This document shows, piece by piece, positions 6,175 through 55,803 of a DNA stretch of 64,000 nucleotides. Each line of letters starts with the position of its first letter. The first letter of the stretch is position 1. A program made the position numbers and the translations under genes. Origin of the DNA: an uncultured bacterium (lineage in GTDB: Bacteria; Krumholzibacteriota; Krumholzibacteriia; WVZY01; JAKEHA01); the NCBI GenBank assembly GCA_965371015.1, contig CBDUWU010000001.1:1368-65367 (forward strand). Reading direction: 5' to 3'. The notes under the pieces are model-generated. The model was not told the DNA's origin, ran no database searches, and saw only the letters and a program-made list of their open reading frames with translations.

Positions 6175-6176
6175 CC

Positions 6177-8444: not shown

Positions 8445-8475
8445 CGTGGTAGTCCTTGGAACAACTATACAGAAA

Positions 8476-9707: not shown

Positions 9708-9755
9708 GGCCCTACGCGATCCGACCAGTACAGTACCCGGAAGGGAAGGTTTTTA

Positions 9756-10445: not shown

Positions 10446-10457
10446 ACGCGGTCCGCG

Positions 10458-24395: not shown

Positions 24396-24423
24396 CATCA
24401 ACGAAGAAGGGATGTGATCGGTC

Positions 24424-25491: not shown

Positions 25492-25499
25492 GGTGAAGC

Positions 25500-28241: not shown

Positions 28242-28247
28242 CCGGAA

Positions 28248-30149: not shown

Positions 30150-30239
30150 GGCCGGTTGTGGTCCGTGCCGCCTCCGGAGAGTGATTTATTTTCTTGTCTT
30201 ACCGGCTGTGTCTACATATCCTGAAACATCCTCTGACGA

Positions 30240-30260
30240 CGCGGGAATACCGCGGGAATA
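30240..30260 (+). repeat. tandem direct repeat CGCGGGAATA(c)CGCGGGAATA upstream of the phosphotransferase fusion gene
   Basis: two 10-bp units spaced by 1 nt, 26 nt upstream of the GTG start at 30286. Confidence 0.5.
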
Positions 30261-30285
30261 TTAATGAAACCGAGGGACTGACGAC

Positions 30286-33123
30286 GTGACCGCACTGGTT
30301 TGCTTTCTGATCGCTTTCGGAGTGTCGTATCTGGGCACCCTCGGGCTGCTGCGCATCCCCATGGTGAGGGGCTTTATCGACGTTCCCAACGAGCGAAGTT
30401 CGCACGAGGCGCCCAAATCCAGGATCGGCGGCGTTGCCATCGTGGTCTCGTTCTACGCGGCGCTCGTGTGGTTGTGGGTGTCACAACCGGAGACTCGGGT
30501 ATTTATGCCGCTGGCCGTCGGGTCCGCGATGCTGTTTCTCACCGGCCTGATCGATGACTGGCGCGGGCTCGGCGTAAAAATCAAGTTTGCCATGCAGATC
30601 GTCGCGGCGATTACGGTAGTGTCGTTCGGGGTCTCGATCGACCACATATACATACCGGCCGCCGGGAGCGTGGAACTGGGCTGGACCGGTATTCCGATCA
30701 CCGTTCTGTTCATCGTCGGAAGCATTAACTTCTACAACTTCATAGACGGTATCGACGGGCTGGCCGCGGGCAGCGCGTTTATCGCGGCGGGGTTTCTGGC
30801 GCTGATCTCCATGACGCTGGGGCACTCGGCACTCGCGCTGGTACTTGTCGCGGCAGCCGGCAGTTCCATCGGCTTTTTACAGTTCAATTTTCCCCCGTCA
30901 AAATTGTTCATGGGTGACAGCGGAAGCACATTTCTCGGCTTCTTTTTTGCGTATACCGCCGTCGCGGCCAACGGGCTGACGCCCGAGCTTCCGGTGTTCA
31001 TTCCGGTTCTGATCCTGTCGTCGCTCTACCTCGACGCGGGGTTGACCCTGTTCAACCGCCTGATCAAGCGTGAAAACATATTCAAAGCGCACCATACTCA
31101 CTATTACCAGAGGCTCCTCTCGCTCGGGTTGAATCACAAACAGGTCACGCTGCTCGAGTACCTGGTGCTCATCCTTCTTGGTGTAAGCGCTGTCGTTTAC
31201 TTCAAGGCGGGCGAGTATTTTCCCGTGTTTATAAGCGCGTGCTGGATCACGCTTTTTACGCTGGCCATTTTGAAGATCCGTGGCCTGGAACGCGGCGACA
31301 AGCTGTTCTGGGAAAAGCGCACTTTGTTCGTCATCGGCCTCGATCTGGTACTGATCACGGTGGCGTACCTGGGTGCGTATTTCATGAGGATGAATTTCCG
31401 CTTCACCGATCCGGAAGGCACGGCGGTTCTGCGCGCGCTTCCGATCGTGCTGATCGTTCGAAGCGCCGTGTTCCACAAACTGGGCTTGTACCGGAGCGTG
31501 TACAAGTACACGAGCACGGCGGACATCGTGCGAATACTCAAGGCGGTCACGATGGGGTCGGCCATCATTCTGACCACCGTTGTCCTGCTCTACCGTTTTG
31601 TCTCGTTTCCGAGAACGCTGTTCATAATCGAATTTTTTCTGCTGACGCTGCTCATCCTCGGGTCGAGATTCTCTTTCCGCCTGTTCCACGAGATCGGCAA
31701 GGAAGCGCACGGCGCCAACGTGAAGCGATACGGGATTGTCGGCGCTGGAGACTTCGGAGAACGGGTCGCGCGCGAGCTGCGTAACGACAGCACCCGGACG
31801 ACAGTGGTGTCCTGTTTTATCGACGACGCCCCGGGCAAGATCGGGATGACGCTGCACGGAGCGCCGATCGTGGGGCCGGTCGACACCCTGGAGGCGATCG
31901 TGGCGAAGTACAAACTGGACGCGATCGTCGTGGGAATCGCCCGTCTCGACCAATACAGGATGGAACAGATTGCCGGGGCTGCCCGGGCCGCGGGGGTGGC
32001 GCTGGAGGGCCGTCAGAGCTCGTTGAAAAAGGATCCCGTTCGACCGGACGAGTTGTTCGAGAAGCTCGCACACGGGATCGGAAGGACCCGCGCCTGCGAC
32101 GTGGGGACGCCGTCCCGCGTATTTTATCGCGGCAAACGTGTGCTGCTCACCGGCGGCGGCGGACCATCCGGCCCGGCGTTAGCCCGCAAGCTGTCTGAAC
32201 TCGGCGCGGTGGTAACCGTGCAGACCGATTCGCCTCACGACGCCAGCAGATTCAACGCGGACCTGCGGAAGGACGTGTTCGTCCACATGGGACCGCCGGT
32301 GGGACCCGAAGGCTGGAAGAGCCTCTTCGACTCCGCCCGGCCCGACGTGGTGTTCTACTGCCTTGCCCTCGAAGTGCCGGCCGACTCGTACTCGGAGTCC
32401 TTCCTGTGGCACGCTTCGGTTTCGACGACGGTGGACCTGATGTCCGCCGTTGCCGGCTCGAGCGTATCTTCACTCGTGATGGTTTCGAATCGTGGAGCTG
32501 GGGCGCAACGAACCGCCGCGGATGCGGCTGCGGTCGCCGAAGCCATATTGCTCAACGGTGTGCTCCCGGACACTGTCGTACCACAGGTGATCCGATTGCC
32601 CCGGGTACTGGATTCGGGCGATCTCCTCGACGTGTTCAACGCGTGGTCGGGCGCAGCGCCGGGCCCAGACACCGGATACGACGTGCTCGAGCCCGAAGCA
32701 GTGGCGGTCGTGCTTGACACCGCGGCTTCCGGCCCGGGTCGCGTCATTGTCGTGCCCCAGTGGAGCGGTTCGTTTTCGGCGGTGGACGCGGAATCGATCC
32801 TCAACGGCAGGCCGGGCCCCGGAAGGACGGATCAATGGGATCGCATCGATCGCAACGCAGGCCCGTTGTATCCGGCTGAAGCCATCGCGGGGCCCCCGAC
32901 ACCGGGTGCGATACGATCGGTCGCCGGGGTCGCCGTCGTGACCCCCCTCTGTCCCGCCGATGAAACCGTCGCGGCCGCCCTGGCCAGCGACCCGCCCGAC
33001 GCCACCGGGGACGAGCGGATCAGGTGGATGGAAGCGGCGACTGCGTCGCTGTATCGTGACTCGGCCTCCGGCGCTGATACCGCCCCTGAGGCGGACTCCA
33101 CCCGCGAGAAGGAGCGGTTGTGA
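30286..33123 (+). CDS. fusion protein: polyprenyl-phosphate sugar-1-phosphate transferase (WecA/MraY GT4 family) + CapD/WbpM-like membrane/Rossmann region with degenerate SDR domain + Ala/Pro-rich C-terminal tail
   Basis: aa 1-330 carry the MraY/WecA motifs DDWRGL, NFIDGIDGLA, MGDSGSTFLGF; aa 340-470 have four more TM helices followed by YGIVGAGDFGERVAREL, as in CapD/PglF; aa 560-760 contain VLLTGGGGPSGPALARKL but no clear Y-x3-K catalytic motif. Confidence 0.75.
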   Translation: MTALVCFLIAFGVSYLGTLGLLRIPMVRGFIDVPNERSSHEAPKSRIGGVAIVVSFYAALVWLWVSQPETRVFMPLAVGSAMLFLTGLIDDWRGLGVKIKFAMQIVAAITVVSFGVSIDHIYIPAAGSVELGWTGIPITVLFIVGSINFYNFIDGIDGLAAGSAFIAAGFLALISMTLGHSALALVLVAAAGSSIGFLQFNFPPSKLFMGDSGSTFLGFFFAYTAVAANGLTPELPVFIPVLILSSLYLDAGLTLFNRLIKRENIFKAHHTHYYQRLLSLGLNHKQVTLLEYLVLILLGVSAVVYFKAGEYFPVFISACWITLFTLAILKIRGLERGDKLFWEKRTLFVIGLDLVLITVAYLGAYFMRMNFRFTDPEGTAVLRALPIVLIVRSAVFHKLGLYRSVYKYTSTADIVRILKAVTMGSAIILTTVVLLYRFVSFPRTLFIIEFFLLTLLILGSRFSFRLFHEIGKEAHGANVKRYGIVGAGDFGERVARELRNDSTRTTVVSCFIDDAPGKIGMTLHGAPIVGPVDTLEAIVAKYKLDAIVVGIARLDQYRMEQIAGAARAAGVALEGRQSSLKKDPVRPDELFEKLAHGIGRTRACDVGTPSRVFYRGKRVLLTGGGGPSGPALARKLSELGAVVTVQTDSPHDASRFNADLRKDVFVHMGPPVGPEGWKSLFDSARPDVVFYCLALEVPADSYSESFLWHASVSTTVDLMSAVAGSSVSSLVMVSNRGAGAQRTAADAAAVAEAILLNGVLPDTVVPQVIRLPRVLDSGDLLDVFNAWSGAAPGPDTGYDVLEPEAVAVVLDTAASGPGRVIVVPQWSGSFSAVDAESILNGRPGPGRTDQWDRIDRNAGPLYPAEAIAGPPTPGAIRSVAGVAVVTPLCPADETVAAALASDPPDATGDERIRWMEAATASLYRDSASGADTAPEADSTREKERL

Positions 33124-39115: not shown

Positions 39116-39475
39116 GTGACAAGTTACGAATGTGCTATCGTGTTCTACCCGAATCTCGGTGACGACGGTGTCAAGGCGGGCACTCAGAAGTACGCCCGCG
39201 TTATCCACGAAGGCGGCGGCGAGTTGACCGCCCTGGAAACGTGGGGGCAGCGAAAGCTCGCCTACGAGATCAATCACCAGTCCGAGGGTGTCTATTTCTT
39301 TTACCGTTTCAGGGGTAACAACGAAATCCTTCTGGAACTCGGCCGCCAACTCCGGATCGATGAATCCGTACTGCGGCACCTGGTCGTCAAGGACGATCTG
39401 GCCAAGGGCAACGAGCCCAAGGTCGAACTGGAGGCCCTGGAAACCGTCGCTGGCGGACCGAAGGAGGGATTCTAG
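39116..39475 (+). CDS. rpsF: 30S ribosomal protein S6 (GTG start)
   Basis: [13 protein letters not shown]...[10 protein letters not shown]; GGGAGG RBS 9 nt before GTG 39116. Confidence 0.9.
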
Positions 39476-39477
39476 TC

Positions 39478-39738
39478 GTGGGAAAGCCGAGGAAGAAAAA
39501 GGAAAAGAAAGACAAGCGCAATTTCAGAGCCCGCAAGCGGAAGCCGTTTCTCGATGAGGTAACTTTCATCGATTACAAGGACATTCGCCTGTTGAGAAGG
39601 TTTATGACGGACCGGGGGAAGATCACTCCCAGGCGCATCACCGGTGCGACGGCGAAACAGCAGCGAATGGTTGCAAGCGCGGTCAAACGGGCGCGGATCC
39701 TCGCGCTGGTGCCGTTCGTCAAGGAATACTACCGATAG
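39478..39738 (+). CDS. rpsR: 30S ribosomal protein S18
   Basis: [34 protein letters not shown]. Confidence 0.9.
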
Positions 39739-39759
39739 TTCAAACCCAGGGAGGAAATC

Positions 39760-40203
39760 GTGGAAGTAATTCTGTTGGATACGGTGCCTTCGCTGGGTGA
39801 CCGCGGTGAGACCGTCAAGGTCAAGCCGGGGTATGCTCGGAATTTTCTCTTTCCGAGAAAACTTGCCCTCCCCGCCACTACGTCGAGCCGGCGGGTGTTC
39901 AGCGAAGAAGAAAAAGTTCTCACCAAGCGCGACGAACTGGCCAAGCACACGGCCCAGGCCGCTGCCGGGAAACTCAACGGCGTATCGTGTACCATTCCCG
40001 TGCAGGTGGGCGATGAAGACAAATTGTACGGTTCGGTGACGGCCGGCGATATTTCCAAGGTTCTCAAGGACCAGGGCTACGACATCGACAAAAAGCAGAT
40101 AATGCTCGAGGAGCCGATCAAGCAGCTCGGTGTGTACACCATCGACGTCAAGCTGCACCGCGACGTCAACGCTCCTGTCAAGGTGTGGGTGGTCAAGGAA
40201 TAG
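39760..40203 (+). CDS. rplI: 50S ribosomal protein L9
   Basis: MEVILLDTVPSLGDRGETVKVKPGYARNFLFPRKLA. Confidence 0.9.
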   Translation: MEVILLDTVPSLGDRGETVKVKPGYARNFLFPRKLALPATTSSRRVFSEEEKVLTKRDELAKHTAQAAAGKLNGVSCTIPVQVGDEDKLYGSVTAGDISKVLKDQGYDIDKKQIMLEEPIKQLGVYTIDVKLHRDVNAPVKVWVVKE

Positions 40204-43102: not shown

Positions 43103-44902
43103 ATGAAATCAACGATCCGCCTTCTTGTTCCGGTCATCGCGGCGGTCCTCGTCGCTCTTCTCTTCGGCGCATGTTCGACGGCGAACAAGAGCGCCGCTAC
43201 CCTCGATGAAGAATCCCGTACCCATGCGGCCAACCTGTTCGCCCGGGTGAAGACCGAGAAGGCGGCGGGGAACCTCGACGCGGCGGCGGCTTCCGCGCAG
43301 GAGCTGATAAACAACTACCCGGGGTTCGCCCGTGCGGACGAAGCGATCTATCTGGCCGGGGAGGTCGCATTTGAGGGTGGACAGTACGACCAGGCGGCCT
43401 CTTACTTCGACGCGGTCGCCGAAAAATACCCGCTGAGTGCATACCGGGCGCCATCGGACCTGTCGGCCGCCCGCGCGTACGCGCGTCTGGAGATGTACGC
43501 CAGGAGCGCGGAGATTCTGGTTCGTCTTCTCGATTCTCCAATCGATGAGGAAATGCGCGCGGCCGCTGAAACGGAATTAGCGGAACTGGTCGCGCGACGG
43601 TTGAGCCCGACGGAAATGGAAGCGCTCGCGAAAAACTACCCCTCTTCGCCGGTCAACCGCGATATTGCCGTGTCGCTCGCCAGATTCGAATACGCCAACG
43701 CCAATTACGATGCCGCGTACGATCTGCTCGCGGAGTTCCTCTACCGGTTTCCCGAGCAGACTGATGTGGCCGAGGCGAGGCGCCTGCTCAAACTCGCCGC
43801 GGAGAAGAGGCAACCGCCCGCCGGCGTGGAAGACGGTGCCGGCCCCCCCCCCGGAATCGTCGAGCCGAACACGATCGGCGCGATTCTGCCGGTGACGGGA
43901 CCGGGACAGATGTCTCTGTTTGCCCGGTATTTCGGTGACGGGTGCCGAAAGGCCGTCGATGAATTCAACGAAACGAGCAGCCGCAAGGTCTCGCTGGTAA
44001 CGGCGGACACGAAGGGATCCGCCGTTGGGGCGGTCAAGTCGGTCAGAAAGCTCGTCCTCGAGGACGGGGCTATCGCCCTCATCGGCGCGGTATTCACCAT
44101 GCCTACCATCACGGCGGCTATCGAGGCCAACGCATGGCAGGTGCCGATGCTCTCGCCGCTCGTCTCGACGGACGACCTGCTCGAGATTGGACCGTGGATC
44201 TTCGAGACAAAAGTGCCCCGTGCGGTCGAGGTGTCGGCCGTTGCCGATCTGGCAGTTTCGCGGTTGCTGTTCGAGAGGATCGCCGTTGTATCGCCCGACG
44301 CCGGACGCTACCGCGACGCCGCCGACCTGTTCGCCGACGAGGTGGTTCGTCTCGGTGCCGAGGTGATTGAGCGCACGCATTACGAGAGCGGAGCAACCGA
44401 CTTCCGCGAACAGCTCGAGGCGGTACGCGACGCTGCCCCCGACGCGATTTTCATCAGCGGAGATTATAAGGAGCTGCTCAATTTGTTGCCGCAGGTCAAG
44501 TTCTACGATCTGCAGGTACAGCTGCTCGGGCTGAGCAACTGGAACAACGATAACTTGCTGAGGCTGTTCAGGGGAGAGCTGGAAGGGGCGTTGTTCCCTC
44601 TGGAAACTTACCGTGGCAAAGACCCGGAGGTGTACGACCGCCTGAAGATGTCGCTCGGGAAAGAAGAAAAAAGCGAGGTCAACTCCGTGATAGTCGCTGG
44701 TTATTTCGGTATGCGTCTGCTGCTCGAATCACTCGGAGCCGGTGCGTCCGATCGCGGAGAGGTCCGCGAGTATCTCGACGGCGTGCTCAGCCAGAAGGCC
44801 GAAAATCGCATGGCCGAGGCTGCAGCGCTCACGATACTCACCGTCCGGTCGGGGAAGGCGGTGGAGTTCACGCCTCCCCCGCGTCCCGGGACCGATTTTT
44901 GA
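43103..44902 (+). CDS. lipoprotein with N-terminal TPR region and C-terminal periplasmic-binding-protein type I (LivJ-like) domain; LpoA-like architecture
   Basis: lipobox LLFGACS; TPR-like helical N-half; C-half IGAILPVTGPG...LIGAVFTMP resembles type I PBP fold; matches domain order of PBP1A activator LpoA. Confidence 0.55.
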   Translation: MKSTIRLLVPVIAAVLVALLFGACSTANKSAATLDEESRTHAANLFARVKTEKAAGNLDAAAASAQELINNYPGFARADEAIYLAGEVAFEGGQYDQAASYFDAVAEKYPLSAYRAPSDLSAARAYARLEMYARSAEILVRLLDSPIDEEMRAAAETELAELVARRLSPTEMEALAKNYPSSPVNRDIAVSLARFEYANANYDAAYDLLAEFLYRFPEQTDVAEARRLLKLAAEKRQPPAGVEDGAGPPPGIVEPNTIGAILPVTGPGQMSLFARYFGDGCRKAVDEFNETSSRKVSLVTADTKGSAVGAVKSVRKLVLEDGAIALIGAVFTMPTITAAIEANAWQVPMLSPLVSTDDLLEIGPWIFETKVPRAVEVSAVADLAVSRLLFERIAVVSPDAGRYRDAADLFADEVVRLGAEVIERTHYESGATDFREQLEAVRDAAPDAIFISGDYKELLNLLPQVKFYDLQVQLLGLSNWNNDNLLRLFRGELEGALFPLETYRGKDPEVYDRLKMSLGKEEKSEVNSVIVAGYFGMRLLLESLGAGASDRGEVREYLDGVLSQKAENRMAEAAALTILTVRSGKAVEFTPPPRPGTDF

Positions 44903-44904
44903 TC

Positions 44905-45630
44905 TCACTGGTATATCCGGAACTTGATCAGAAATTTGATCCACATCGATATCGGCTCGTCTCCCCTTCTGGGAGGCTGAAAGACGAACTGCTTCACGGC
45001 TTCGATAGACGATTTCTCAAAACTCTTCGGACCGATAGACGACAGCACCGCCGCCATTTCCACGCGTCCGCGTTCATTCACGAACAATTCTACCGTGACG
45101 CTTCCCTCGGTTCCATTGGTCAATTCGTAGATCGGATACTCGGGCTGGACCATTTTCAGAAGTATGTAAGACTCTGAGTAGGGGACATCGCGATTGCTGG
45201 GGCGCGTTGTGACGTTCAGCAGGTCGTCGAACGAAATTTCCGGCATTTCGGTTTCGTCCGGAGATGGGTCGTTGAGCAGGTTGGGCTTGTCGAAATCAGG
45301 CCCCTCGACGATGTCGAGGTCCAGGCTGGTCAGCAATTTCAGTTTATGCTGGTTTTCGATCGCCGTGAACGGGTCGTCGTCGGGCATGATGGAGATCTCG
45401 GAGAGGAGTTGCATTTCGCCCTTGAACCCGACGTGCTTCTCCAGTTCATCGACGGAAACCTGGTCGGATGTGACGAACAGGAATGCGACGACCATGAACG
45501 CGAGGGGAACGATTCGCAGCAGACGCTTGTGGTAGGCACGGTCGCGTGCCCACACGCGCCGGTTTTCCGGTACGCCGCTCATAACCATAAAATAGTCAAG
45601 AAGTTGGGTGAGGTCAACCCGGCTGAACAA
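44905..45630 (-). CDS. TonB C-terminal domain protein
   Basis: single N-terminal TM, Pro/Asp/Glu-rich linker, C-terminal VQPEYPIYELTNGTEGSVTVELFVNERGRVEMAAVLSSIGPKSFEKSSIEAVKQFVFQP matches TonB_C. Confidence 0.6.
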   Translation of the reverse strand: MFSRVDLTQLLDYFMVMSGVPENRRVWARDRAYHKRLLRIVPLAFMVVAFLFVTSDQVSVDELEKHVGFKGEMQLLSEISIMPDDDPFTAIENQHKLKLLTSLDLDIVEGPDFDKPNLLNDPSPDETEMPEISFDDLLNVTTRPSNRDVPYSESYILLKMVQPEYPIYELTNGTEGSVTVELFVNERGRVEMAAVLSSIGPKSFEKSSIEAVKQFVFQPPRRGDEPISMWIKFLIKFRIYQ

Positions 45631-45697: not shown

Positions 45698-48046
45698 TCA
45701 CCGGTGCGTTTCGTCCCCGGTGCCGGCGTCGAAGCGGACGGCGGCCCGCTCGCCCGGCGACAGCTGTATAACGTCCCCGAACGAACGCCCCGATTTGACG
45801 GCGTGGAGACGGTACTCGCCGGGGGCGAGTTTGCCGAAGCGGACCATACCCCGGGGGCCGGTCACGAGCGTCCAGGTCCCGTCGATTGTCACCCGCCAGC
45901 CCGCCGCGTCGTCGGCGTGGATTTCGACGGCGACCTCGCCCGAATCGGACACCTCGTAGTGGTCGAGGACGCCGGTAAAGACCGCGTACGCCTGATCGCG
46001 CTGATACCACGATTCGGCCAGCCTCAACTCCTCTTCCACCGTGCCGATCGAGGGCGGCGCGACAACGATCGCCGGGCACGCCGTCTGCTGGAGCGGATAG
46101 GTCACGGTATCGAACGGGCCCCGCGGCGGGACGTCGAGGCGGGAGGACATCGCGGCGAGCACGCTGGCCGCCATTCGTGACCCCGTGGAACTCCCGGGAA
46201 AGTAATACGTCGTGGCCACCAGCGGACTGTCCACCGGCGCCGTCCGGTGGCGGATTTCGATGTAGCGATTGGCGCCGAACCCGTTGGTCATGCGGGCGAT
46301 GTCTTCCGGCGTTCGCACCTCGTCGTTCGTCCGTGTGAGCTTGACCGCGGCCCCGGCGGACCTCAGGTATCCGGCCAGGTAGCGCGCCACCTGGAGGTTG
46401 GCGTGGGCGCCGGACAGGCCCAGCTTCCCGATTCCCGTCGTGGAGGCCTTTCCGCCCTCGGGATCGAGTACGAATCTCAGCCCGGTGAGGGCGCCCCCGA
46501 ACCACGGGATCAGGTCGACCGTGTCGGGTGGAGAGTCGCCCGCGACGAAGAGAGGGATGTATCCCGGCGCTTCGATCGAAAGGAACGATTCGGCCGAATC
46601 GGCGGTCCCGGCGTTCGACGGGTCTTTGCGCCGGTAGATGAACTCGCCCGCTTGTGAGACGTTCGTTCCGGTCCCGCCGTCGCGCCGGATGACGGCAACG
46701 GTCACCGGTTGTCCCGTCACCGCGTTCCGCACAATCCCCGCCCGGGTTTCCGGGCCGGATTCGGATTCGCGGGTGAGAGAGTGCGCGAACGATTTTCCGC
46801 GGCACTCGACACGGATGGTGGCCGCGTCGCCGCCGGGTTCGGTATGGACGATCACGTCGATCGATCCGGCCGCCACCACCGTCTCGACGGTATCCGCCGC
46901 CGCGACGATACGTACCCCGGTACCGTCCGCTACGGGCAGTCCCCGGCGGTCGAGCAGCCGGACCCTCGCCCGCACGGCGCCGGCGCCGGCGGGAGCCATG
47001 GGCGGCTGGACGTCGAAAGCGGCAAATTCGGGTTCGAAATCGATCGCAAATCGCGTGGAGAGCAGGGGGCTCGTGTTGCCGCCGGTGTTCCTCGCCGAAA
47101 CGGTCGCCTCATACGCACCGTTGGGGAGGTCCCACGGCGGGTTCCAGGCCGCCCGCTGTGCCAGCAGGTCGACGCGGGGCAGAACGGGGCGTCCATTGAG
47201 CGTCATGGTGATGCCGTCGGGATCGATACCGGCGCCCCCGTCGTCTTCGAGCGAATACACGAGTTCGGGCACTGTCTCGTGGAGCGAGTCGACCGGCGAC
47301 AGGCAAGTTACACGGGGAATCCCGCGGCCGAAATACTCGAGGAGGCCGAGGAAGTAGGCTTCGGCCTCCAGTTTCTGTGCCTCCGAGAGCTTGATTTTTT
47401 CTTCCACCCCCGGGTTGGTCAGGTAGCTGGATTCGCCCAGCACGGCGGGCGCGCCGGATTCGCGCAGGATCAGGTAATTGCCCTGCCGGACGATGCCGTT
47501 CTCGATGCCGAGATTCCGCATGAGGTGGCGGTGGACGGCGAACGCCAGATCCAGCGATGCCGGGTCGCCGGCCCGGTAGTAAGTTTCAACCGAGTTCTTC
47601 GCCGGATCTCTCTTTGGCTGGGCGTTGTGGTGGATCGAAATGAGTACGTCGGGGCGGATCGAATCCGCCATCGCCACGCGGGTCCGGAGGTCCGAAGCGA
47701 GCGACGAATCCTCTTCGGTGAGAAAGTCGCGGTCGACCGAACGGGTCATGAAGGCGTCGGCGCCGGCCTCCCGGAGCAGGCCCCACAGGTAGAGCGATAC
47801 ACCGAGGTTGACGCTCGCTTCTTCGAGGCCGTCGCGCCCGACGGTGCCCCGGAAATGCCCCCCGTGACCGGCGTCGATGAGAATCCGGCGGCCCTTCAGC
47901 GCTGAGGGATCGATTCGTGGGAGCGGTTCCGACAGACCGCGGTATAATCGGTCGATGGAATACTGCTTCGGGGGCGCCCCGCACGAGGCGGCGATGCCGG
48001 CCAGAACGGCCAGGAGCGCTAGCGGGATTTGAAGGCGTTGTTTCAT
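45698..48046 (-). CDS. lipoprotein N-acetylmuramoyl-L-alanine amidase with two Amidase_3-like domains, the second apparently degenerate
   Basis: lipobox LAGIAASCG; first domain RILIDAGHGGHFRG...LISIHHNA...YYRAG; second domain (aa ~515-700) LRFVLDPEGGKAST...YIEIRHR with Zn-ligand His positions replaced. Confidence 0.75.
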   Translation of the reverse strand: MKQRLQIPLALLAVLAGIAASCGAPPKQYSIDRLYRGLSEPLPRIDPSALKGRRILIDAGHGGHFRGTVGRDGLEEASVNLGVSLYLWGLLREAGADAFMTRSVDRDFLTEEDSSLASDLRTRVAMADSIRPDVLISIHHNAQPKRDPAKNSVETYYRAGDPASLDLAFAVHRHLMRNLGIENGIVRQGNYLILRESGAPAVLGESSYLTNPGVEEKIKLSEAQKLEAEAYFLGLLEYFGRGIPRVTCLSPVDSLHETVPELVYSLEDDGGAGIDPDGITMTLNGRPVLPRVDLLAQRAAWNPPWDLPNGAYEATVSARNTGGNTSPLLSTRFAIDFEPEFAAFDVQPPMAPAGAGAVRARVRLLDRRGLPVADGTGVRIVAAADTVETVVAAGSIDVIVHTEPGGDAATIRVECRGKSFAHSLTRESESGPETRAGIVRNAVTGQPVTVAVIRRDGGTGTNVSQAGEFIYRRKDPSNAGTADSAESFLSIEAPGYIPLFVAGDSPPDTVDLIPWFGGALTGLRFVLDPEGGKASTTGIGKLGLSGAHANLQVARYLAGYLRSAGAAVKLTRTNDEVRTPEDIARMTNGFGANRYIEIRHRTAPVDSPLVATTYYFPGSSTGSRMAASVLAAMSSRLDVPPRGPFDTVTYPLQQTACPAIVVAPPSIGTVEEELRLAESWYQRDQAYAVFTGVLDHYEVSDSGEVAVEIHADDAAGWRVTIDGTWTLVTGPRGMVRFGKLAPGEYRLHAVKSGRSFGDVIQLSPGERAAVRFDAGTGDETHR

Positions 48047-48130
48047 TACCCCTGCGATAGCAGAAATCGTCGGGTCCATCAAGGACTTTGGCCGGGAAGC
48101 GGGGCACCAAAAGGTTGGAATTAATAACGA

Positions 48131-48185: not shown

Positions 48186-49610
48186 ATGAGCGATAAAAAC
48201 AGCAAAGAGGCGCTGCGGGCGATTCCGCCCGTGGACGATATCCTGGCCGACGAGCGGCTCTCCGGTCCCAGGAAACAGCATCCGCGGTTTCCCTGGACCC
48301 GGCTGGTGAGGTCCGTCGTCACGGAGTATCGCGATCTGGGCAAGACGCCGACCGGTGTCGACCCCGCGTCCCGGGATTCTGTGCGGGACTGGGTCGTCAC
48401 TCGGGTGGGGCAGGCTTGCGGTGAACTGGAGCACGGGGGGCAGCGTCGCGTGATCAACGGGACCGGCGTGATCCTCCACACGAATCTGGGCCGCGCCGTT
48501 ATCGGCGCTGGTGCGCGCCGGGCCGTCGATGAAGCGCTTGCGCACTATATGAGCCTCGAGGTGGACCTCGAGAGCGGGCGGCGCAGCGAGCGGGCAACTA
48601 CGTTGAACCGCCTCGCGGCGCTGGCGACGGGGGCCGAAGACGCAATGGTTGTGAACAACAACGCGGCCGCCGTCTATCTCGTGCTCGGAGCGTTTTCTCC
48701 CCCGGGGCGGGTCATCGTGTCGCGCGGAGAACTGGTGGAAATCGGCGGCAGCTTCCGTCTGCCGGAAATCCTCCGGCACGCTTCTTCGGAGGTCATCGAG
48801 GTCGGGACGACCAACCGCACCTACGCCGAGGACTACGAAAAAGTCGCGGTGGAGGGGGACGTCCTGCTCAAGGTCCACAAGAGCAACTATGCCATCGAAG
48901 GGTTCGTCAGCGAGGCGTCTCACGTGGACCTGGTACGCGTCGCGGCCGCCAGGAACTGCCGGCTTGTTTACGACCTGGGAAGCGGCGCGGTGTTCGATTA
49001 TCGCGGGGCCGGAATCGGTGGCGATGAACCTGTCGCCGGCATAGTAGATGCCGGCGTGGATTGTGTGACCATGAGCGGCGACAAGCTGCTCGGGGGAGTG
49101 CAGGCCGGCATTATCGCCGGCAAGAAGGAAGTCCTCGCGTCGGTTCGGAACAACCCGCTGCGCCGGGCGGTGCGGATCGACAAGGTCACCGTCGCGGCTC
49201 TCCAGGATGTCCTGAGACAGTATCTGTTCGGACCGGGACCGGAATCCGGAGTACCCGTACTCGGGCAGGTCCTTGCCGGCCTGGATGTGGTCCGGGAACG
49301 GGCACGCAAGGTGGCTGAGGCCGTGGTCCGGAATCTGGGCGCGGGCGGCGGTCCGGACGTTTCCGCCGTCGACGATGACGCGGCCGTGGGTGGGGGGAGC
49401 TGGAGCTCGGAGTCGGTCGCTTCGGCCGCCGTCTGCATACGCTGCGACGGCGAAAAGGAAGCGGTCCGGCTGGCGCGCCGCCTGAGGTTGAATGACCCGC
49501 CCGTCGTTCCGCGGGTCAGGGGCGCCGAAGTTCGCATTAATATGAGATCGGTGATGCCGTACGAGGATGGGGAGCTCGGTGACGTTCTCGCCTCTGTGCT
49601 GGCGTTGTAA
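48186..49610 (+). CDS. selA: L-seryl-tRNA(Sec) selenium transferase
   Basis: VINGTGVILHTNLGRA, VNNNAAAVYLVL, SRGELVEIGGSFRLPE, PLP-lysine motif SGDKLLGGVQAGII - close to E. coli SelA throughout. Confidence 0.85.
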   Translation: MSDKNSKEALRAIPPVDDILADERLSGPRKQHPRFPWTRLVRSVVTEYRDLGKTPTGVDPASRDSVRDWVVTRVGQACGELEHGGQRRVINGTGVILHTNLGRAVIGAGARRAVDEALAHYMSLEVDLESGRRSERATTLNRLAALATGAEDAMVVNNNAAAVYLVLGAFSPPGRVIVSRGELVEIGGSFRLPEILRHASSEVIEVGTTNRTYAEDYEKVAVEGDVLLKVHKSNYAIEGFVSEASHVDLVRVAAARNCRLVYDLGSGAVFDYRGAGIGGDEPVAGIVDAGVDCVTMSGDKLLGGVQAGIIAGKKEVLASVRNNPLRRAVRIDKVTVAALQDVLRQYLFGPGPESGVPVLGQVLAGLDVVRERARKVAEAVVRNLGAGGGPDVSAVDDDAAVGGGSWSSESVASAAVCIRCDGEKEAVRLARRLRLNDPPVVPRVRGAEVRINMRSVMPYEDGELGDVLASVLAL

Positions 49611-49616
49611 CCATGA

Positions 49617-51161
49617 TTGACCGTTAGATTCGAAAGACGAGTCATGGAAAAGATATCTTCTTATAATATAGCAGTTTCTGTTGATACCTTAAGGGAAGGC
49701 TTTAATTCCGGCCAACTGGTGCCCGCGCTGCACGGGCCGCTGCAGTCTCTGCTGCCGCGGGTAACGCGCGCCGCTGCCGAAGCGCCGGCGTCCGTCTACC
49801 TGTTCTCCGCGGGAGATGGCGCCGAGGTCCGGGATCTGTTCGGATTTGCGCTTGTCGCCGCGCTGTCGCAGCAGATCCCGACGGCGTTGCTCGTCGATTG
49901 CGGATTTCTGGCGGTCGGCCTCAGCGGAGTCGTGCCGCAGAAAGACGCGCTCGGATTCCTCGACCTCCTGCTCTACGGGAGTTCGCTCGGCGTTATCACC
50001 CAGAAAACGAACGGCGGTGTCCACGTGGTGGGGGCGGGGTCCTTTCCGGTAACCAAGAATATGCCGTTCGTACTCAACGCTTTTGAGGAGGCGTCGCGCC
50101 GTCTCGTGTCGCAGTGTCGCTGCGCGGTCTTCTGCGGCCCCCTGTATAACGACGAAGGAGCACTCCACCCGCTGATCGGAGCCGTCGACGTACCGATTAT
50201 GGTGAGACTCGCCGGAACCGGGGGCTCCATCGTCGATCCTATCGAAGAGCAGATCTCCTCGAAGTGGGACTCGGAGTTGCTCAGCGTAAGAGTCACGCCC
50301 CGCGATGCCGCCGCCGCGCCGCCGCCAGCAACCGTGGCTACCGGAGTGGTCGACGAGAAACCCGTCGTCCCTGCGACTCCGGCGGCCGCGCCTCCATCGC
50401 AACATGAATTCGAGGAGATAGTCCCGCCCGCGCCACCGAGACCCGCCCGGGTCGAGACACCGAAACCCGCCCCGGCCCGGACACCGAAACCCGCCCCGGC
50501 CGAGGTTGCCCCGGTCGCTGATGTCGAATTCGAAGAGGAATCAACCGCGTCGCAGTACAAAGAGAAGAAATACTCATCGTTGGTTCCAAAAATCGCAACT
50601 GCTGTTGTCGCAACGGTTGTAGTCGTTTTCCTCGTGTGGTGGTTCAATGAGGAACGGACCGGCGGAGGCGGATCGGAACCTCCGCAGACGACAGGCTCGT
50701 CCGCTGTTTCGGATGTGGATGACGCCGGAGCCGAAACACCGACGGTGGTGGTGGTGGACAGCACGGTGGTGGACAGCACGGTGGTGGACGGCACGGCGGC
50801 GGTTGCCGTTGCCGCGGACACGACGGCCGCGCAGCCGGAACCGGAGCCGACCGGCGCGGCCGGCGCGGTCTCTTCCGACGACATACTCGTGATGGATGAC
50901 CTCGAAAACAACTGGGGTGGACAATACCTCATCCACATCAGTTCGTTCCGCGATTCGGGGAAAGCCCGAACCGAGGTCGGACAATTGACGTCCCGCGGAT
51001 TTTCGGTGTTCATCGTGTACCTGAATCTTGGTGCCAAAGGTTCGTGGTACCGCGTTTACGCCGGTCCCGTAGCGACACGCGAGGACGCGCGAAACATGAA
51101 AAAACTTCTGGACGATACGCCGGGGGTGCGTTTTACTCGCATATCGCAAATCGCGAATTAG
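49617..51161 (+). CDS. SPOR-domain protein with N-terminal degenerate ParA/MinD-like domain, proline-rich repeat linker and TM segment
   Basis: C-terminal YLIHISSFRDSGKARTEVGQLTSRGFSVFIVYLNLGAKGSWYRVYAGPVATREDARNMKKLLDD is SPOR-like; N-domain resembles ParA/MinD fold but with SAGDGAEV in place of Walker A; TM ATAVVATVVVVFLVWWF; start codon uncertain (49617 or 49644). Confidence 0.6.
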   Translation: MTVRFERRVMEKISSYNIAVSVDTLREGFNSGQLVPALHGPLQSLLPRVTRAAAEAPASVYLFSAGDGAEVRDLFGFALVAALSQQIPTALLVDCGFLAVGLSGVVPQKDALGFLDLLLYGSSLGVITQKTNGGVHVVGAGSFPVTKNMPFVLNAFEEASRRLVSQCRCAVFCGPLYNDEGALHPLIGAVDVPIMVRLAGTGGSIVDPIEEQISSKWDSELLSVRVTPRDAAAAPPPATVATGVVDEKPVVPATPAAAPPSQHEFEEIVPPAPPRPARVETPKPAPARTPKPAPAEVAPVADVEFEEESTASQYKEKKYSSLVPKIATAVVATVVVVFLVWWFNEERTGGGGSEPPQTTGSSAVSDVDDAGAETPTVVVVDSTVVDSTVVDGTAAVAVAADTTAAQPEPEPTGAAGAVSSDDILVMDDLENNWGGQYLIHISSFRDSGKARTEVGQLTSRGFSVFIVYLNLGAKGSWYRVYAGPVATREDARNMKKLLDDTPGVRFTRISQIAN

Positions 51162-51260
51162 CCGTACGCCGTTCTTCGCATGCCCGCGCGGGTTTCCGGC
51201 GCGGGCGGCGTGGAAATACGCATAGCGGCGCCTTTCAGTGTTAGCCTGGAGGACCAGCAT

Positions 51261-54200
51261 TTGAATCTCCGCAAGCTACAGATATTCGGGTTCAAGTCTT
51301 TTATGTCCCGCCTGGAACTCGATTTTTCACCCGGGATCACAGCTATCCTCGGACCCAACGGGTGCGGCAAGTCGAACGTTGTCGACGCCATCCGCTGGGT
51401 GCTCGGCGAACAGCGCACCCGTCTGCTGCGTAATACCAAGATGGAAAACGTCCTGTTCAACGGCACGCGTCTCCGCAAGCCGCTGGGTATGGCCGAGGTC
51501 TACATGACGCTTTCCAACGAGGACCACGGTCTTTCGGTCGATTACGAGGAAGTGACGATCGGCCGCAAGTTGTACCGGAGCGGAGTCAGCGAATACACGC
51601 TGAACAACGAGCCCACCCGGCTCAAGACGATTAAAAACCTGCTTGTCGACACAGGGTTGGGCAACAACGCCTACGCGATCATCGAGCGCGATATGGTGGA
51701 CAAGGTTCTCAGCGAGAAGGAACAGGAAAAACGCAATCTGCTGGAAGAAGCCGCGGGTGTGATGCGGTACCGGATCCAGCGGGAAGAAGCTGAGCGCAAG
51801 ATCAAGTTGACCGAGCAGGACCTCCTCCGTCTCGGTGATATCATACAGGAACTCGACAAGGAGATCCGGTCGCTGAAATACCAGATGGCCAAGGCCCGCC
51901 GTTACGTACGGCTGAGGGACAAGTCCAACGAAATGGAAGCGGTACTCCTCAAGGCGACGCTTTACGACCTGCTCATACGCGAGGACGAACTGAACAAGGA
52001 ACGCGAGCGGCACGAGGGAATCCGCCTCGCCGACGACAACGAAATCTCCACGCGCGAAAACAGGCTGCAGGAAAGGCGGATTGAGTCATCGGAGCAGGAA
52101 CACTCGCTTCAGGGGCTGCGTGAGACCCGGTACAACGTCAGCAGTAACCTCCAGCAGCACGAGGAAAAGATCGCCGTTCACACGGAGAGGGTCAACAGCA
52201 GCCGCGGCCGGATTGTCGAGGATCGCGCCGAAATCGACCGGGCGCGCGAGAAGCTCCACAATCTGGCCAGCGACCTCGAACGCTACAACAACGAAGTGGG
52301 CGGGCGCGGAAACCGGCTCGAGACCCTTCGCGAGGAACTCTCAACGCAAGAGGAATCATTGCGCTCGGTGTCCAGGCGTCTCGACGAAGCCCGAAAGGAC
52401 TTGCGGGAGAAGAAACAACTGGCTCTGAATCTGGTCGAGGCGAAGGCCAGGGAGGAAGGGCTCGTCGAGCATCTCGAGTCGACGCTGACCGAGCTGGAGG
52501 GCAAACGCGAGTCGATCGAGAATCAAGTCTCGGACCTGTCGGAGGAAGAATCCCGAAGGGTATCGGAACTCGGCGAGGTGGAACACAGGTTCAACGAAGC
52601 CGGCCGGCAGCTCGACAGCAGGCGTGATGATTCGAGAAAATTCACCTCGGAGCTGGACCGCCTGGCGGAAGAAACTGCGTCCTGCGAGAAAGCGCTTTCC
52701 GAAGCAGTTCGCAACCAGACCAAACTACGCGAAAAAAAGGAATTCCTGGACAAAATCAAGCGGGAACACACCCGCTGGTCTGACGATACTCTGGGAGCGC
52801 ACGAAGGGTTGAGCGGAGTCCTCTCGGACTTCGTGCACGTGGACAAGGAATACCGCAAGTGTTTCGAAGCCTGTCTCGCGCCCGTGCTCAACGGCGTCGT
52901 GGCCCGCTCCCGCGAAGACGCCGTCGTGTGCATTCGTGAATTCGTCGCCGCCGACAGCGGTCGTGTCCAGATACTGATTTCCCTGTCGGATCCGGACGCC
53001 GCCCCCCCGGGGGGCGAGACGGTCAGCGGCGAGGGGATCGTCGGGCCCGCTTCGTCGCTCGCCAGGTTCGACAAAAGCATCGAAGCCTATATGCGTTCGT
53101 ATCTGTCCGGCGTGGTGGTGGTGGAGGACACCGACGCGGCGCTCGATGTGATCGAGAGCGGCCGGGTGGCGCGAGTCGTAACGCTCGACGGTGTGTTTTT
53201 CGACGGACCGGCGCGTATTATCGTCGCCGGCTCGGATGACGTGGAAACCACGCTTCTCGATTACGACGCCAAACTGACCGAACTCTCGGCGGGCCTCGAG
53301 CACCTCGAAGGCGCGGGGCGTGAGTTGGAGCAGCTGCGCGACTCCCTCGCCCGTGACCGCGAGAGAGTTCAACGGGATGTCGCCGAGGCGCGCACGACGA
53401 TCGCCGCGCAGGAGCAGGCGGTCGAGTCGTTGCGCGGTACGCGGCGCGACCGGGAGTTGGCCGTCGTTCGGGTCAAGGAAAAGATCACGTCGGCCGAATC
53501 CGCTCTGGCGGAAAACGGGGAATCGGTATCAGCCGTAAAAATCCGGCTGGAGGCCACGACGAATCGTCCGAACAGCGGTGCTGCCGCGAATGCGGGCGCC
53601 GGCGACGTGGATGACGTAGATGTGGCGCGGACCGAAGAACTGACCCTCGACCTCGAACGCGAAAAGGAATTGCTGGCCGAGTCGGTCGGAAGGCTGAAGC
53701 TCGAGAACGTCTCGGTGTCGGGAGAAGTGGACACGCTTCAGACCAAGATTCGCAACGCGGAAAAACTCGACGAGGAGCTCAAGCAGTTGATGCAGGCGCG
53801 GAAAGAAGACGAAACGCGGTGCCAGGAACAGATCACGGTGAGCGAAGAGGACGTTGCGAGTCTCCGGTCGGGCATTTCGGGCCTCCACGCGGAAAAAGAA
53901 ACGGTCGAGCGGGAGATCGAACAGATCAGCGAAGCCCACGAGGAAACCAAACGAGAGTGCGACGAACTGGAAAAAGAGCTTAAGCAGATGAAAGACCAGC
54001 GCGACGCCAAACGCGAGAACCTCGAACGAGTCAGCGTCGAGACGGCGTCGCTGGAAACCCGAGTCTCCGGTCTGCTGGAAAAAGCCGAGGAGAATTTCGA
54101 TCAGGACCTTCGGCCATACCTGAAGAACCGGGAGTTGTTCGACCCCTCAGAATGGGAAAACTTCAACCGCGAGGCGCTGTCGCAGCTCAAGGCCAAGGTC

Positions 54201-54878
54201 GAGAACTTTGGACCTGTCAACATGCTCGCTCTCGATGAATACAACGAGAAGAATGAACGGTTCGAGTTTCTCAGCAAGCAGAAGGCCGATCTGGAGGAAG
54301 CGAAGAACTCGCTCACCCTGGCGATCAGGAGAATCAACAAGGAAGCGCGCCGGTTGCTGCGGGAGACTTTCGAACAAGTCCGCCAGAATTTCAAGCAGAC
54401 GTTTCTCACTCTGTTCGACGGTGGTGAGGTCGACCTGTTGTTCGTAGATTCGGACGATCCGCTGGAAGCCAATATCAAAATCGTCGCCAACCCCAAGGGT
54501 AAAAAGCTCCACGATATCGCGAGCCTCTCGAGTGGCGAGCGCGCGCTGGTCGCGTTGTCGCTCCTCTTCGGGATCTATCTGGTCAAGCCGAGCCCCTTCT
54601 GCGTGTTCGACGAAGTCGACGCTCCGCTCGATGACGCGAACATCGCCCGTTTCGTCAGGCTGCTCAAGTCGTTTACGGATCGCACCCAGTTCATCGTAAT
54701 CACGCACAACAAGAAGACGATGGAAGCGGCGGACAACCTTTACGGCGTCACCATGGAAGAGCCGGGGATTTCCAAGCTGGTATCCATCCGCCTCGACGAG
54801 GCGGAACGGTTCCGGCACCACCGCACAGGGACGAATCAGTCGGACGACGCACCTTCGGCGGCGGCGCCGGCGGCCTGA
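51261..54878 (+). CDS. smc: chromosome segregation protein SMC (TTG start)
   Basis: N-terminal Walker A [21 protein letters not shown], long coiled-coils with central hinge, C-terminal [42 protein letters not shown] RBS 7 nt before TTG 51261. Confidence 0.9.
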   Translation: [1205 protein letters not shown]

Positions 54879-54918: not shown

Positions 54919-55803
54919 ATGTTCAACCTCAAGGAAAAGCTGCAAAAGACGAGAGAGAATTTCGTCAATCCTCTGAAAAGGATATTTCAACGCGGTGGGG
55001 AGCTGAGCGATGACGACGAGTACGAGCTCGAGGAGTTGCTGCTCAGCGCGGACATCGGGGTGGACGCGTGTGACCGTATCGTGGAAGTACTGCGCGAGAG
55101 CGGCCACGAAAGCGACTACCGCGAGTGTTTGCGTCGCGAATTTCTGGACCTGCTCGGTGACGGGGAAGACGCGCGCCGAGACAATGTGACGGGCACCCGC
55201 GCCATCGTGGTCATCGGCGTGAACGGTGTCGGCAAAACGACGAGTATCGCCAAGTTGGCCAACTTCTTCAAGGAACGTGGGGAGTCGGTGGTACTGGCGG
55301 CGTGCGACACCTTCCGGGCGGCGGCGGTGGACCAGCTGCGTGTCTGGGCCGACCGGGTGGGCGTCGACTTGATCCAGCACCAGGAAGGTGGTGACCCGGG
55401 CGCCGTCGCATTCGACGCGTGCAAAGCGGCGAAAGCCCGAGGGACGGATGTGGTCGTCATCGATACAGCGGGCCGCCTGCACACTCGCGTCAATCTGATG
55501 GAAGAACTGAAAAAGATCAAACGCGTCTGCGAAAAGGTGCTGGGCCCGGATTCGGTGGAAACCCTCCTCGTTCTCGACGCCAACCTGGGGCAGAACAGCC
55601 TCATCCAGGCGTCCGAGTTCACGAAAGCTCTGGGCACCGACGGCATCATACTCACAAAGCTGGACAGCACAGCCAAGGGCGGCATTGTCATTGCGATCAA
55701 GCAGTCCCTGGGAATTCCCGTGCGCTACATCGGGGTCGGTGAACAGATCGGCGACTTCGACTCCTTCTCCGCCGACACATTTGTCGAAGCCCTCCTCGGA
55801 TGA
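54919..55803 (+). CDS. ftsY: signal recognition particle receptor FtsY (NG-domain-only form)
   Basis: VIGVNGVGKTTSIAKLA, DTAGRL, TKLDSTAKGG SRP GTPase motifs; 294 aa. Confidence 0.9.
   Translation: MFNLKEKLQKTRENFVNPLKRIFQRGGELSDDDEYELEELLLSADIGVDACDRIVEVLRESGHESDYRECLRREFLDLLGDGEDARRDNVTGTRAIVVIGVNGVGKTTSIAKLANFFKERGESVVLAACDTFRAAAVDQLRVWADRVGVDLIQHQEGGDPGAVAFDACKAAKARGTDVVVIDTAGRLHTRVNLMEELKKIKRVCEKVLGPDSVETLLVLDANLGQNSLIQASEFTKALGTDGIILTKLDSTAKGGIVIAIKQSLGIPVRYIGVGEQIGDFDSFSADTFVEALLG

Follow-up and report, generated by a model that had tools for sequence, protein, structure and literature searches.

The 64,000-nucleotide stretch analyzed here (the window; an uncultured bacterium of the Krumholzibacteriota, GenBank assembly GCA_965371015.1, contig CBDUWU010000001.1, positions 1,368 to 65,367 of the forward strand) carries, between selA and smc, a gene for a protein of unusual build: an N-terminal domain (the N-domain) that has the fold of a BY-kinase catalytic domain and in which the catalytic motifs are broken or missing, a transmembrane (TM) helix, and, at the C-terminal end, a SPOR domain. 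The family to which this protein belongs is previously undescribed. We consider it reasonably probable that its members, here called pseudo-BY-kinase-TM-SPOR proteins, are bitopic inner membrane proteins that act as a non-catalytic, lineage-specific scaffold of the septal divisome or envelope in Krumholzibacteriota and related candidate phyla. A preliminary description of the locus had likened the N-domain to ParA and MinD and had proposed that the protein ties nucleoid or division-site positioning to septal peptidoglycan.

The evidence rests on a broad sampling of homologues. A word-indexed search returned 12 proteins, those named being mostly from “Candidatus Krumholzibacteria”; a further 71 loci were gathered from species-representative genomes; and an exhaustive HMMER profile scan of 1.84 billion representative proteins yielded 123 cluster representatives, or about 120 clusters at 50% identity. 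The structural model was built from an alignment of 109 sequences (A5), and motif columns were counted over 100 aligned sequences (alignment A3 for the O-motif and the SPOR columns). The FtsN, MinD, and CapB sequences used for comparison served for alignment register alone, not for statistics. In the databases the members go by names as diverse as “hypothetical,” “SPOR domain-containing,” “RodZ,” “DamX,” “DedD,” and “non-specific protein-tyrosine kinase,” and the N-domain is covered by no Pfam or NCBIfam model. Such names are generic or wrong, and the family deserves a domain model of its own.

Assigning the N-domain to a family required depth. Direct searches of amino acids (aa) 1-230 against Pfam, NCBIfam, and the PDB gave no match for the window protein or for its 12 close relatives, and we took a weak PDB match to ectoine synthase (E = 0.08) to be due to chance. 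A single-sequence AlphaFold prediction was uninformative (predicted local distance difference test [pLDDT] score of 42), and hhalign comparisons of a shallow 13-sequence profile with single MinD and CapB sequences recovered the expected register without statistical support (E = 0.19 and 0.065). It is the deeper profile and the structure, not these comparisons, that settle the question. With the 109-sequence alignment, the AlphaFold (AF2) model of the N-domain reaches a mean pLDDT of 94.4 and a predicted template modeling score (pTM) of 0.91, and in a Foldseek search of the PDB its top 41 matches are all BY-kinase domains, among them Wzc (3la6), CapAB (4jmp, 2ved, and 3bfv), VpsO (6u1q), Etk (3cio), and BceF (6z0p), with a best E value of 1.4e-7 and template modeling scores of ~0.6-0.7; MinD, ParA, and FlhG rank below them. 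The family profile, run against PDB sequences, tells the same story: BceF (9.3e-15), CapAB (6e-14), VpsO (9e-8), Wzc (1.6e-7), and Etk (5e-7) are matched, whereas MinD, Soj, and CbiA appear only at E values of at least 0.01. The N-domain thus has a P-loop NTPase fold, probably together with the N-terminal helical extension specific to BY-kinases. About 50 more of its residues align to BY-kinases than to MinD, ParA, or FlhG, and in the model these extra residues are probably the BY-kinase-specific N-terminal helices. Finally, the sole non-SPOR protein with a clear domain assignment that the exhaustive scan reached, P0129, is a genuine Wzz-GNVR BY-kinase with a tyrosine cluster at its C-terminal end (SDYGYAGAYGY). 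Based on the Foldseek ranking and the profile matches, we therefore assign the N-domain to the homologues of BY-kinase catalytic domains (Wzc/CapB type) inside the MinD/ParA P-loop superfamily. The “ParA/MinD-like” label of the preliminary description is accordingly right at the superfamily level, where AlphaFold and Foldseek both find the SIMIBI P-loop fold whose absence would have sunk it, and wrong at the family level, where BY-kinases are closer.

BY-kinases are recognized by a Walker-A motif (GX5GK[S/T]), a Walker-A' motif (phi4-DXDXR), a Walker-B motif (phi4-DX2P), a C-terminal Y-cluster, and an EX2RX2R O-motif (PMC9800525), and the window protein conforms to none of the three Walker patterns. 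At the Walker-A position, where genuine P-loop relatives have GK[ST] in the same register, it reads S55-AGDGAEV-R63-D64; aligned with BceF, Arg63 stands opposite the Walker Lys. Across the family the Lys column is Arg in 85 of 99 sequences, the Ser/Thr column (Asp64 here) is Asp or Asn in 55 of 100, the Gly that should precede the Lys is gone, and GK[ST] is retained in P0129 and P0130 alone. The Walker-A' segment, LLVD85-C-G87-F-L, keeps its first Asp (Asp85), as do 99% of family members; 80% of them also have the second Asp, but the window protein has Gly87 there, and the trailing Arg has become Leu. In the Walker-B segment, AVF-C164-G-P166, Pro166 is kept and the catalytic Asp is replaced by Cys164, a column that holds Val in 36 and Cys in 34 of the 100 sequences and Asp in P0129 and P0130 only. 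There is no C-terminal tyrosine cluster: the N-domain is followed by a Pro/Ala linker, and the only nearby tyrosines, Y305 and Y310, lie beside the membrane. Nor is the O-motif conserved, E-AC-R-TL-R of P0129 standing opposite P32-LQ-S-LL-P in an alignment whose helix register is less certain here than in the core. In the AlphaFold model a helix (aa 57-74) starts one residue past strand 1 (aa 49-55), which therefore leaves no phosphate-binding loop. The destroyed Walker A (SAGDGAEV) of the preliminary description is thus borne out by register and by column counts, and the loss reaches further than was noted there: the Walker-B Asp, the Y-cluster, and the O-motif are missing too, and the window protein has also lost the second Asp of Walker-A'. 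The N-domain has thus lost the residues for ATP hydrolysis and phosphotransfer and is predicted to be catalytically dead.

Decay of the motifs has gone along with strong conservation. In the 100 sequences, G104, G112, and S133 are invariant, and D107, S114, and G132 are conserved in at least 98%; the strongest conservation lies in LLVD-C-D-F, G-F-L-D-L-L-L-Y-G-S-S, and G-A-G-S-F-P-V, whose counterparts in BY-kinases, in the register given by CapB and BceF, are the Walker-A', GLS..L.G, and aG..PPNP segments. We infer that the former active site and substrate-tail groove may have been retained as a binding surface. Weak CbiA, AAA_31, or ParA matches, which turn up in 8 of 46 distant members despite their degenerate motifs, fit a gradual decay from an active ancestor.

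The C-terminal SPOR domain of the preliminary description is secure: it is the only Pfam domain found in the protein, and its match to PF05036 (aa 426-489) scores 43 bits, the curated cutoff being 21, with E = 5.6e-11. The domain is carried by 44 of the 46 distant members, and the family profile matches those of DedD (6ztg; 5.8e-9) and FtsN (1uta; 3e-5). NCBIfam gave sub-threshold matches to FtsN and RlpA models in the SPOR region only, and over the whole protein the FtsN-family models fall far short (TIGR02223, 20.2 bits against 107.65; PRK10927, 12.8 bits against 525). In the BLASTP register, His431, Ser434, Trp468, and Arg470 stand opposite Gln251, Ser254, Trp283, and Arg285 of the E. coli FtsN SPOR domain, and three of these are nearly uniform in the family (S434 in 93 of 94, W468 in 87 of 92, and R470 in 91 of 92 sequences). 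The Ser, Trp, and Arg residues of FtsN matter for its septal localization. SPOR domains target the denuded septal glycans made by amidases, and in RlpA the conserved SPOR Gln contacts the lactyl carboxylate of the denuded glycan (PMC6895207). FtsN, DamX, and RlpA carry this glycan-contacting Gln; the family has His.

How are the two folded domains connected? The ORF list counts the open reading frame (ORF) as 49617..51161 (+), 514 aa from a TTG at 49617. All orthologues (the 12 close homologues and, later, ~100 more) share an N terminus of the form M-E/D-K/R-I/V-S-S/T-Y/F, which the product of the ATG at 49644 matches with MEKISSY, whereas the in-frame sequence upstream of that Met is unconserved; the true start is thus the ATG, 27 nucleotides (nt) downstream of the TTG, which we ruled out. 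A hydropathy scan finds a single TM segment at aa 313-335 (Kyte-Doolittle maximum of 2.47 in a 19-residue window), flanked by KEKK on its N-side and NEER on its C-side; apart from a buried N-domain strand, no other window exceeds 1.6, and the scan shows no N-terminal signal sequence. Given a single TM helix, no signal peptide, and a peptidoglycan-binding C terminus, the only consistent topology is N-in/C-out, which would place the pseudo-ATPase in the cytoplasm and the SPOR domain in the periplasm, as the preliminary description had it. Every element listed there is present, including the tandem DNA repeats of 24 bp and 15 bp, which Tandem Repeats Finder recovers and which encode ...PPRPARVE TPKPAPAR TPKPAPAE... 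and VVDST VVDST VVDGT, respectively. We ruled out these peptide repeats as functional motifs, because they differ even in L001 (N-domain 95% identical), which reads ETPRPTPARTPKPAPAT at the site of the first and, after an unrelated insertion, AVVDSTLADSTAVV at the site of the second; L002 and L003 (66-67% identical) lack both, and L002 has an unrelated repeat of its own. Judged by this comparison, the repeats are slippage-type length variation, that is, lineage-specific low-complexity expansions in what are predicted to be disordered spacers. Identity to the orthologues is 30-68% in the N-domain and 25-71% in the SPOR domain with its preceding segment but 16-39% in the two linkers (16-39% in the cytoplasmic and 18-33% in the periplasmic one), so that selection acts on N-domain and SPOR domain alike. 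Conserved elements outside the two domains sit close to the membrane (Y-S/T-S-L-x-P-K before the TM helix, at the end of the cytoplasmic linker, and F..WW at the end of the helix) or, in the case of I-x-V-M-D-D-L, just ahead of the SPOR domain.

Repeat-bearing low-complexity DNA between two folded domains does invite the suspicion of an artefact, namely, that the gene for a cytoplasmic protein and a SPOR gene have been joined by a missed frameshift in the proline-rich region, an outcome that would also have undone the preliminary description. We regard this as next to impossible: most of the 71 loci, which come from independent genomes, show the same single ORF with a TM helix between the domains, as do about 100 representative homologues of 460-620 aa from different assemblies, and the architecture is kept although the linker sequences are wholly different.

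The gene sits in a conserved setting. It begins 33 nt after selA and ends 18-100 nt before smc, which ftsY follows directly, as described earlier. In all 71 loci, from genomes labeled Krumholzibacteriota/-ia, Latescibacterota/-ia, UBP1, or unclassified (mostly Krumholzibacteriota or Latescibacterota), the gene order is the same wherever flanks are present; smc lies immediately downstream in 51, and most of the other 20 stop at a contig edge before smc. Five distant members of only ~20% identity also lie between selA and smc-ftsY (P0088; P0109, labeled Candidatus Eisenbacteria; P0124; P0127; and P0086), with ribD following ftsY in P0088, P0124, P0127, and P0086; a sixth, P0099, lies between selA and smc on a short contig. 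Promoter and terminator scans stayed at background level, with no predicted terminator in either intergenic gap, so that co-transcription of selA, the SPOR gene, and smc is likely to judge from the sequence. Three distant relatives (L072, L075, and L078) have a SPOR gene whose start overlaps the selA stop, an arrangement suggesting that genes of unrelated function are translationally coupled. Since the whole selA-X-smc-ftsY-ribD block is frozen, including the unrelated selA and ribD, adjacency to smc is weak evidence for a functional link. Among the 71 loci, a contig end truncates 12 copies of the gene, and the ORF is shorter in two: L066:5791-6450 and L071:5806-6585 carry a homologous ORF of just 220 and 260 aa, respectively, from stop to stop, with smc at the usual distance. 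In these two, the linker region may hold a frameshift or an assembly error, or the gene may be a pseudogene. A gene for an amidase that has two Amidase_3 domains keeps its syntenic place in nearly all of those among the 71 loci that cover the region, and in L075, the Eisenbacteria locus, it is also nearby. The SPOR ligand being an amidase product, we infer that this enzyme is a more logical partner than smc.

In the model that we favor, the SPOR domain would bind the denuded glycan strands left by septal amidases and so concentrate the protein at the constriction site, as with FtsN, DedD, and DamX. The dead kinase domain, whose most conserved residues would lie on the former active-site and substrate-tail face, would serve as a non-catalytic docking or oligomerization module, and this module would recruit or hold a cytoplasmic partner at the septum. 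Two precedents make such a scaffold a reasonable proposal: GumC, for which the term “pseudo-BY-kinase” has been suggested, is thought to act by clustering (PMC9800525), and CpsD, the septal BY-kinase of Streptococcus pneumoniae, is structurally ParA-like, binds ParB, and couples capsule synthesis, constriction, and chromosome segregation (PMC4574921). Several observations weigh against the model. The O-motif, on which ring assembly of BY-kinases depends, is not conserved (P32-L-Q stands in its place), which makes oligomerization uncertain. The position of FtsN Gln251 is His in 88 of 94 sequences (His431, 50934-50936), a real peculiarity, and one through which the ligand specificity of the SPOR domain may be altered. 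The conserved Arg63 and Asp85 leave room for residual binding of a nucleotide or another ligand. The unrelated selA and ribD share in the synteny that smc and the amidase gene show, which weakens what adjacency can say about function. Moreover, these organisms are uncultured, and we know of no phenotype. We also entertain a bolder version of the model, which we consider quite unlikely: the family would be the functional counterpart, of a different design, of an FtsN-type divisome trigger in Krumholzibacteriota, Eisenbacteria, and related lineages, with a ring or array of dead BY-kinase domains, clustered as SPOR binds amidase-processed peptidoglycan, docking FtsA/FtsZ, ParB, or SMC and thereby reporting septal wall hydrolysis to segregation and constriction.

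Is it possible that the N-domain still works? A nucleotide-dependent switch or kinase with a non-canonical P-loop, in which Arg63 replaces the Walker Lys, Asp85 coordinates Mg2+, and nucleotide state is relayed through the membrane, either toward the SPOR domain or away from it, could draw on the near-constancy of Asp85 and on the 85% conservation of Arg63 exactly in the Lys column. It could draw further on P0130 (L074:577-2139), a SPOR-bearing protein of 520 aa with a TM helix in which DEGKST, DGD, and the Walker-B Asp are intact and which passes the Pfam CbiA threshold (37.5 bits). Judged from its motifs, P0130 indicates that a combination of an active P-loop with SPOR exists; it is no evidence for activity in the orthologues of the window gene. 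A singleton from a low-GC metagenome contig of 3 kb, it has neighbors that lack a Pfam match and include neither selA nor smc. The word-indexed search brought up only two relatives, short P-loop proteins with weak E values (a “protein-tyrosine kinase,” E = 1.3e-5, and an Mrp-family ATPase, E = 9.3e-4), both devoid of a SPOR domain. P0130 may be a relative that is still active or a fusion that arose independently. The question raised by the preliminary description, whether orthologues share the architecture and whether any retains an intact Walker A, thus has a divided answer: the architecture recurs widely, but among the SPOR-bearing proteins the intact Walker A is found only in P0130, which we do not count as an orthologue that has kept its activity. 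In the family itself, the glycine-rich loop is lost and the modeled helix follows strand 1 directly, the Mg2+-binding Ser/Thr is mostly Asp or Asn, the Walker-B Asp is Val or Cys, the second Walker-A' Asp is lacking in the window protein, and there is no tyrosine cluster to phosphorylate. In real BY-kinases, mutations in Walker A (including K540M in Wzc) and of the Walker-A' Asp abolish or reduce activity (Table 2 of PMC9800525). We therefore hold a working switch or kinase to be improbable.

Two further proposals concern the role of the protein. In one, the septum-anchored kinase-like domain would have a nucleoid protein as its partner, be it ParB, SMC-ScpAB, or another, and would time constriction with nucleoid clearance, coupling chromosome organization or segregation to septum closure. 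It can point to smc, which lies directly downstream both in 51 of the 71 loci and in the six distant relatives of ~20% identity, to the overlap with selA in L072, L075, and L078, and to CpsD, which is ParA-like, sits at the division site, and interacts with ParB (PMC4574921). Yet within the frozen selA-X-smc-ftsY-ribD block, adjacency to smc is no more telling than adjacency to selA or ribD, and no DNA-binding or ParB-interaction feature is visible, none having been searched for. Adjacency of smc and ftsY is, moreover, common in bacteria that do not have the gene described here. We consider this coupling rather unlikely, although it would be compatible with the scaffold model as a sub-case, and the CpsD precedent keeps it alive. 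The other proposal would have the protein as a pseudo-BY-kinase regulator akin to a co-polymerase, as suggested for GumC, that sites capsule or exopolysaccharide assembly at the septum. Its closest structural relatives do all act in capsule or exopolysaccharide assembly, GumC has been termed a “pseudo-BY-kinase,” and a Wza-like export protein and glycosyltransferases are encoded at 22.9-33 kb of the window; but the periplasmic Wzz/polysaccharide co-polymerase (PCP) domain is absent, more than 16 kb separate the gene from the polysaccharide genes, which are outside the conserved block, and the immediate neighbors are housekeeping genes (selA, smc, ftsY, and the rib operon), all of which makes such a role very improbable.

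Set against known systems, the family shares with BY-kinases (Escherichia coli Wzc and Etk, Staphylococcus aureus CapB, Vibrio cholerae VpsO, and Burkholderia BceF) profile similarity at E values of 1e-14 to 5e-7, the in-register elements hhhVDxD, G-L/F-x-D-x-L-x-G, aGxxP, and hhhh-x-x-P, and a tether to the inner membrane. It differs from them in having x-R-D/N for GK[ST] and Cys or Val for the Walker-B Asp, with neither Tyr cluster nor EX2RX2R; in its order, since its kinase-like domain is N-terminal and followed by the TM helix whereas that of BY-kinases is C-terminal to a two-TM Wzz/PCP domain; and in its periplasmic part, which is a SPOR domain rather than a polysaccharide co-polymerase, encoded outside any polysaccharide cluster. 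GumC resembles it as a membrane-anchored protein with a cytosolic BY-kinase-like domain that has no Y-cluster and for which clustering or scaffolding, not phosphorylation, is proposed (PMC9800525); unlike the family, which lacks a PCP domain, carries SPOR, and sits in a housekeeping context, GumC is the polysaccharide co-polymerase of the xanthan pathway. CpsD, as part of the S. pneumoniae CpsC/CpsD-ParB system, likewise brings a BY-kinase-type domain to the division site through a membrane partner and links it to chromosome segregation (PMC4574921), but it is an active autokinase that signals through its phosphorylation state, owes its recruitment to CpsC and not to a SPOR domain, and belongs to a capsule locus. 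With E. coli FtsN and DedD, the family shares the SPOR profile (matches of 5.8e-9 to DedD and 3e-5 to FtsN) and the Ser, Trp, and Arg of the glycan-binding sheet of FtsN, whereas its His in place of the conserved SPOR Gln and the fact that no FtsN essential-domain motif was identified set it apart from FtsN. Its cytoplasmic part, a folded pseudo-kinase domain of 222 aa, is unlike that of FtsN, DedD, or DamX: FtsN and DedD have a short cytoplasmic tail, and the cytoplasmic domain of DamX is not known to have a P-loop fold. Compared with MinD, ParA, and FlhG, finally, the structural score is lower, with ~50 fewer aligned residues than for BY-kinases, there is no significant profile match (E of at least 0.01), and both the KGGxGK[ST] signature and a C-terminal amphipathic membrane-targeting helix are missing.

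Full-text literature searches found no paper that combines SPOR with a BY-kinase and nothing relevant on SPOR in an architecture with Wzc, a tyrosine kinase, ParA, or MinD or on cell division in Krumholzibacteria. The preliminary statement that the known SPOR proteins have no ParA-like domain thus stands as far as these searches go. Both building blocks are of known kinds; what is new is their fusion, the inverted order (kinase-like domain N-terminal, then the TM helix), the full catalytic decay under strong conservation, and the clade-wide spread. SPOR proteins are the best-understood case of targeting to the division site through a cell-wall modification rather than through protein contacts, and those characterized so far carry periplasmic enzymes or short cytoplasmic tails; the present family would deliver a whole folded cytoplasmic module to the septum. 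It also takes the BY-kinase fold outside polysaccharide assembly, in a non-catalytic form, as a bacterial pseudo-kinase or pseudo-ATPase under strong purifying selection. For these uncultured phyla, for which to our knowledge no cell biology is available, it offers a testable candidate component of the divisome. Table 1 gives the coordinates.

Table 1. Features of the pseudo-BY-kinase-TM-SPOR gene and of its neighbors, in window positions
Feature	Position	Strand	Residues and basis
Complete coding sequence, pseudo-BY-kinase-TM-SPOR protein	49644..51161	+	505 aa plus stop; ORF list, orthologue N termini
N-domain, predicted cytoplasmic; BY-kinase-like P-loop NTPase fold, predicted catalytically degenerate	49644..50309	+	aa 1-222
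Degenerate Walker-A position SAGDGAEVRD	49806..49835	+	aa 55-64; column counts, alignment to BceF
Walker-A' remnant ALLVDCGFL	49884..49910	+	aa 81-89; column counts
Best-conserved block of the family, GFLDLLLYGSS (aa 104-114) to GAGSFPV (aa 130-136)	49953..50051	+	100 sequences
Walker-B remnant CAVFCGP	50121..50141	+	aa 160-166; column counts
Pro/Ala/Glu-rich cytoplasmic linker, predicted disordered	50310..50579	+	aa 223-312; composition
24-bp tandem repeat, 3.4 copies	50423..50504	+	Tandem Repeats Finder score 108
Single TM helix LVPKIATAVVATVVVVFLVWWF	50580..50648	+	aa 313-335; Kyte-Doolittle
Val/Ala/Thr/Asp-rich periplasmic linker	50649..50903	+	aa 336-420; composition
15-bp tandem repeat, 3.1 copies	50750..50796	+	Tandem Repeats Finder score 87, 96% matches
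SPOR domain	50919..51110	+	Pfam PF05036 match aa 426-489; conserved region ~aa 413 to 505
TPR/periplasmic-binding protein	43103-44902	+	
TonB_C protein	44905-45630	-	
794-aa protein, two Amidase_3 (N-acetylmuramoyl-L-alanine amidase) domains	45698-48082	-	Two genes upstream of SPOR gene
SelA (selenocysteine synthase)	48186-49610	+	33 nt before target ATG
SMC	51180-54878	+	
FtsY	54919-55803	+	Then ribD, ribE, ribBA

A few observations on the rest of the window may be added. The smc ORF is listed from the ATG at 51180, yet its Pfam SMC_N match begins at residue 30; the typical SMC N terminus (LNLRKLQIFGFKSF) begins ~80 nt downstream, with an in-frame TTG at 51261 that may be the true start, in which case the gap after the SPOR gene would be ~100 nt. 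No gene for Wzc or another BY-kinase was found among the window ORFs scanned. A polysaccharide-type gene group at 22893-33123 encodes, at 22893-24395, the Wza-like export protein with Poly_export and SLBB; its other products are a nucleotidyl transferase, a GT4 glycosyltransferase, a homologue of asparagine synthase, and one large Glycos_transf_4/CoA_binding_3 protein. Four long ORFs lack a Pfam match at an E value of 1e-5 or below, namely, 611-2602 (+; 663 aa), 8413-9402 (+; 329 aa), 9753-10616 (-; 287 aa), and 39472-40158 (-; 228 aa); some of them overlap alternative ORFs on the opposite strand, and they may not all be genes. An ABC transporter set at 2735-7550 resembles the gliding-associated GldA/F/G and consists of an ABC_tran protein, a fusion of ABC-2 membrane and ABC_transp_aux domains (882 aa), and a DUF4340 protein.

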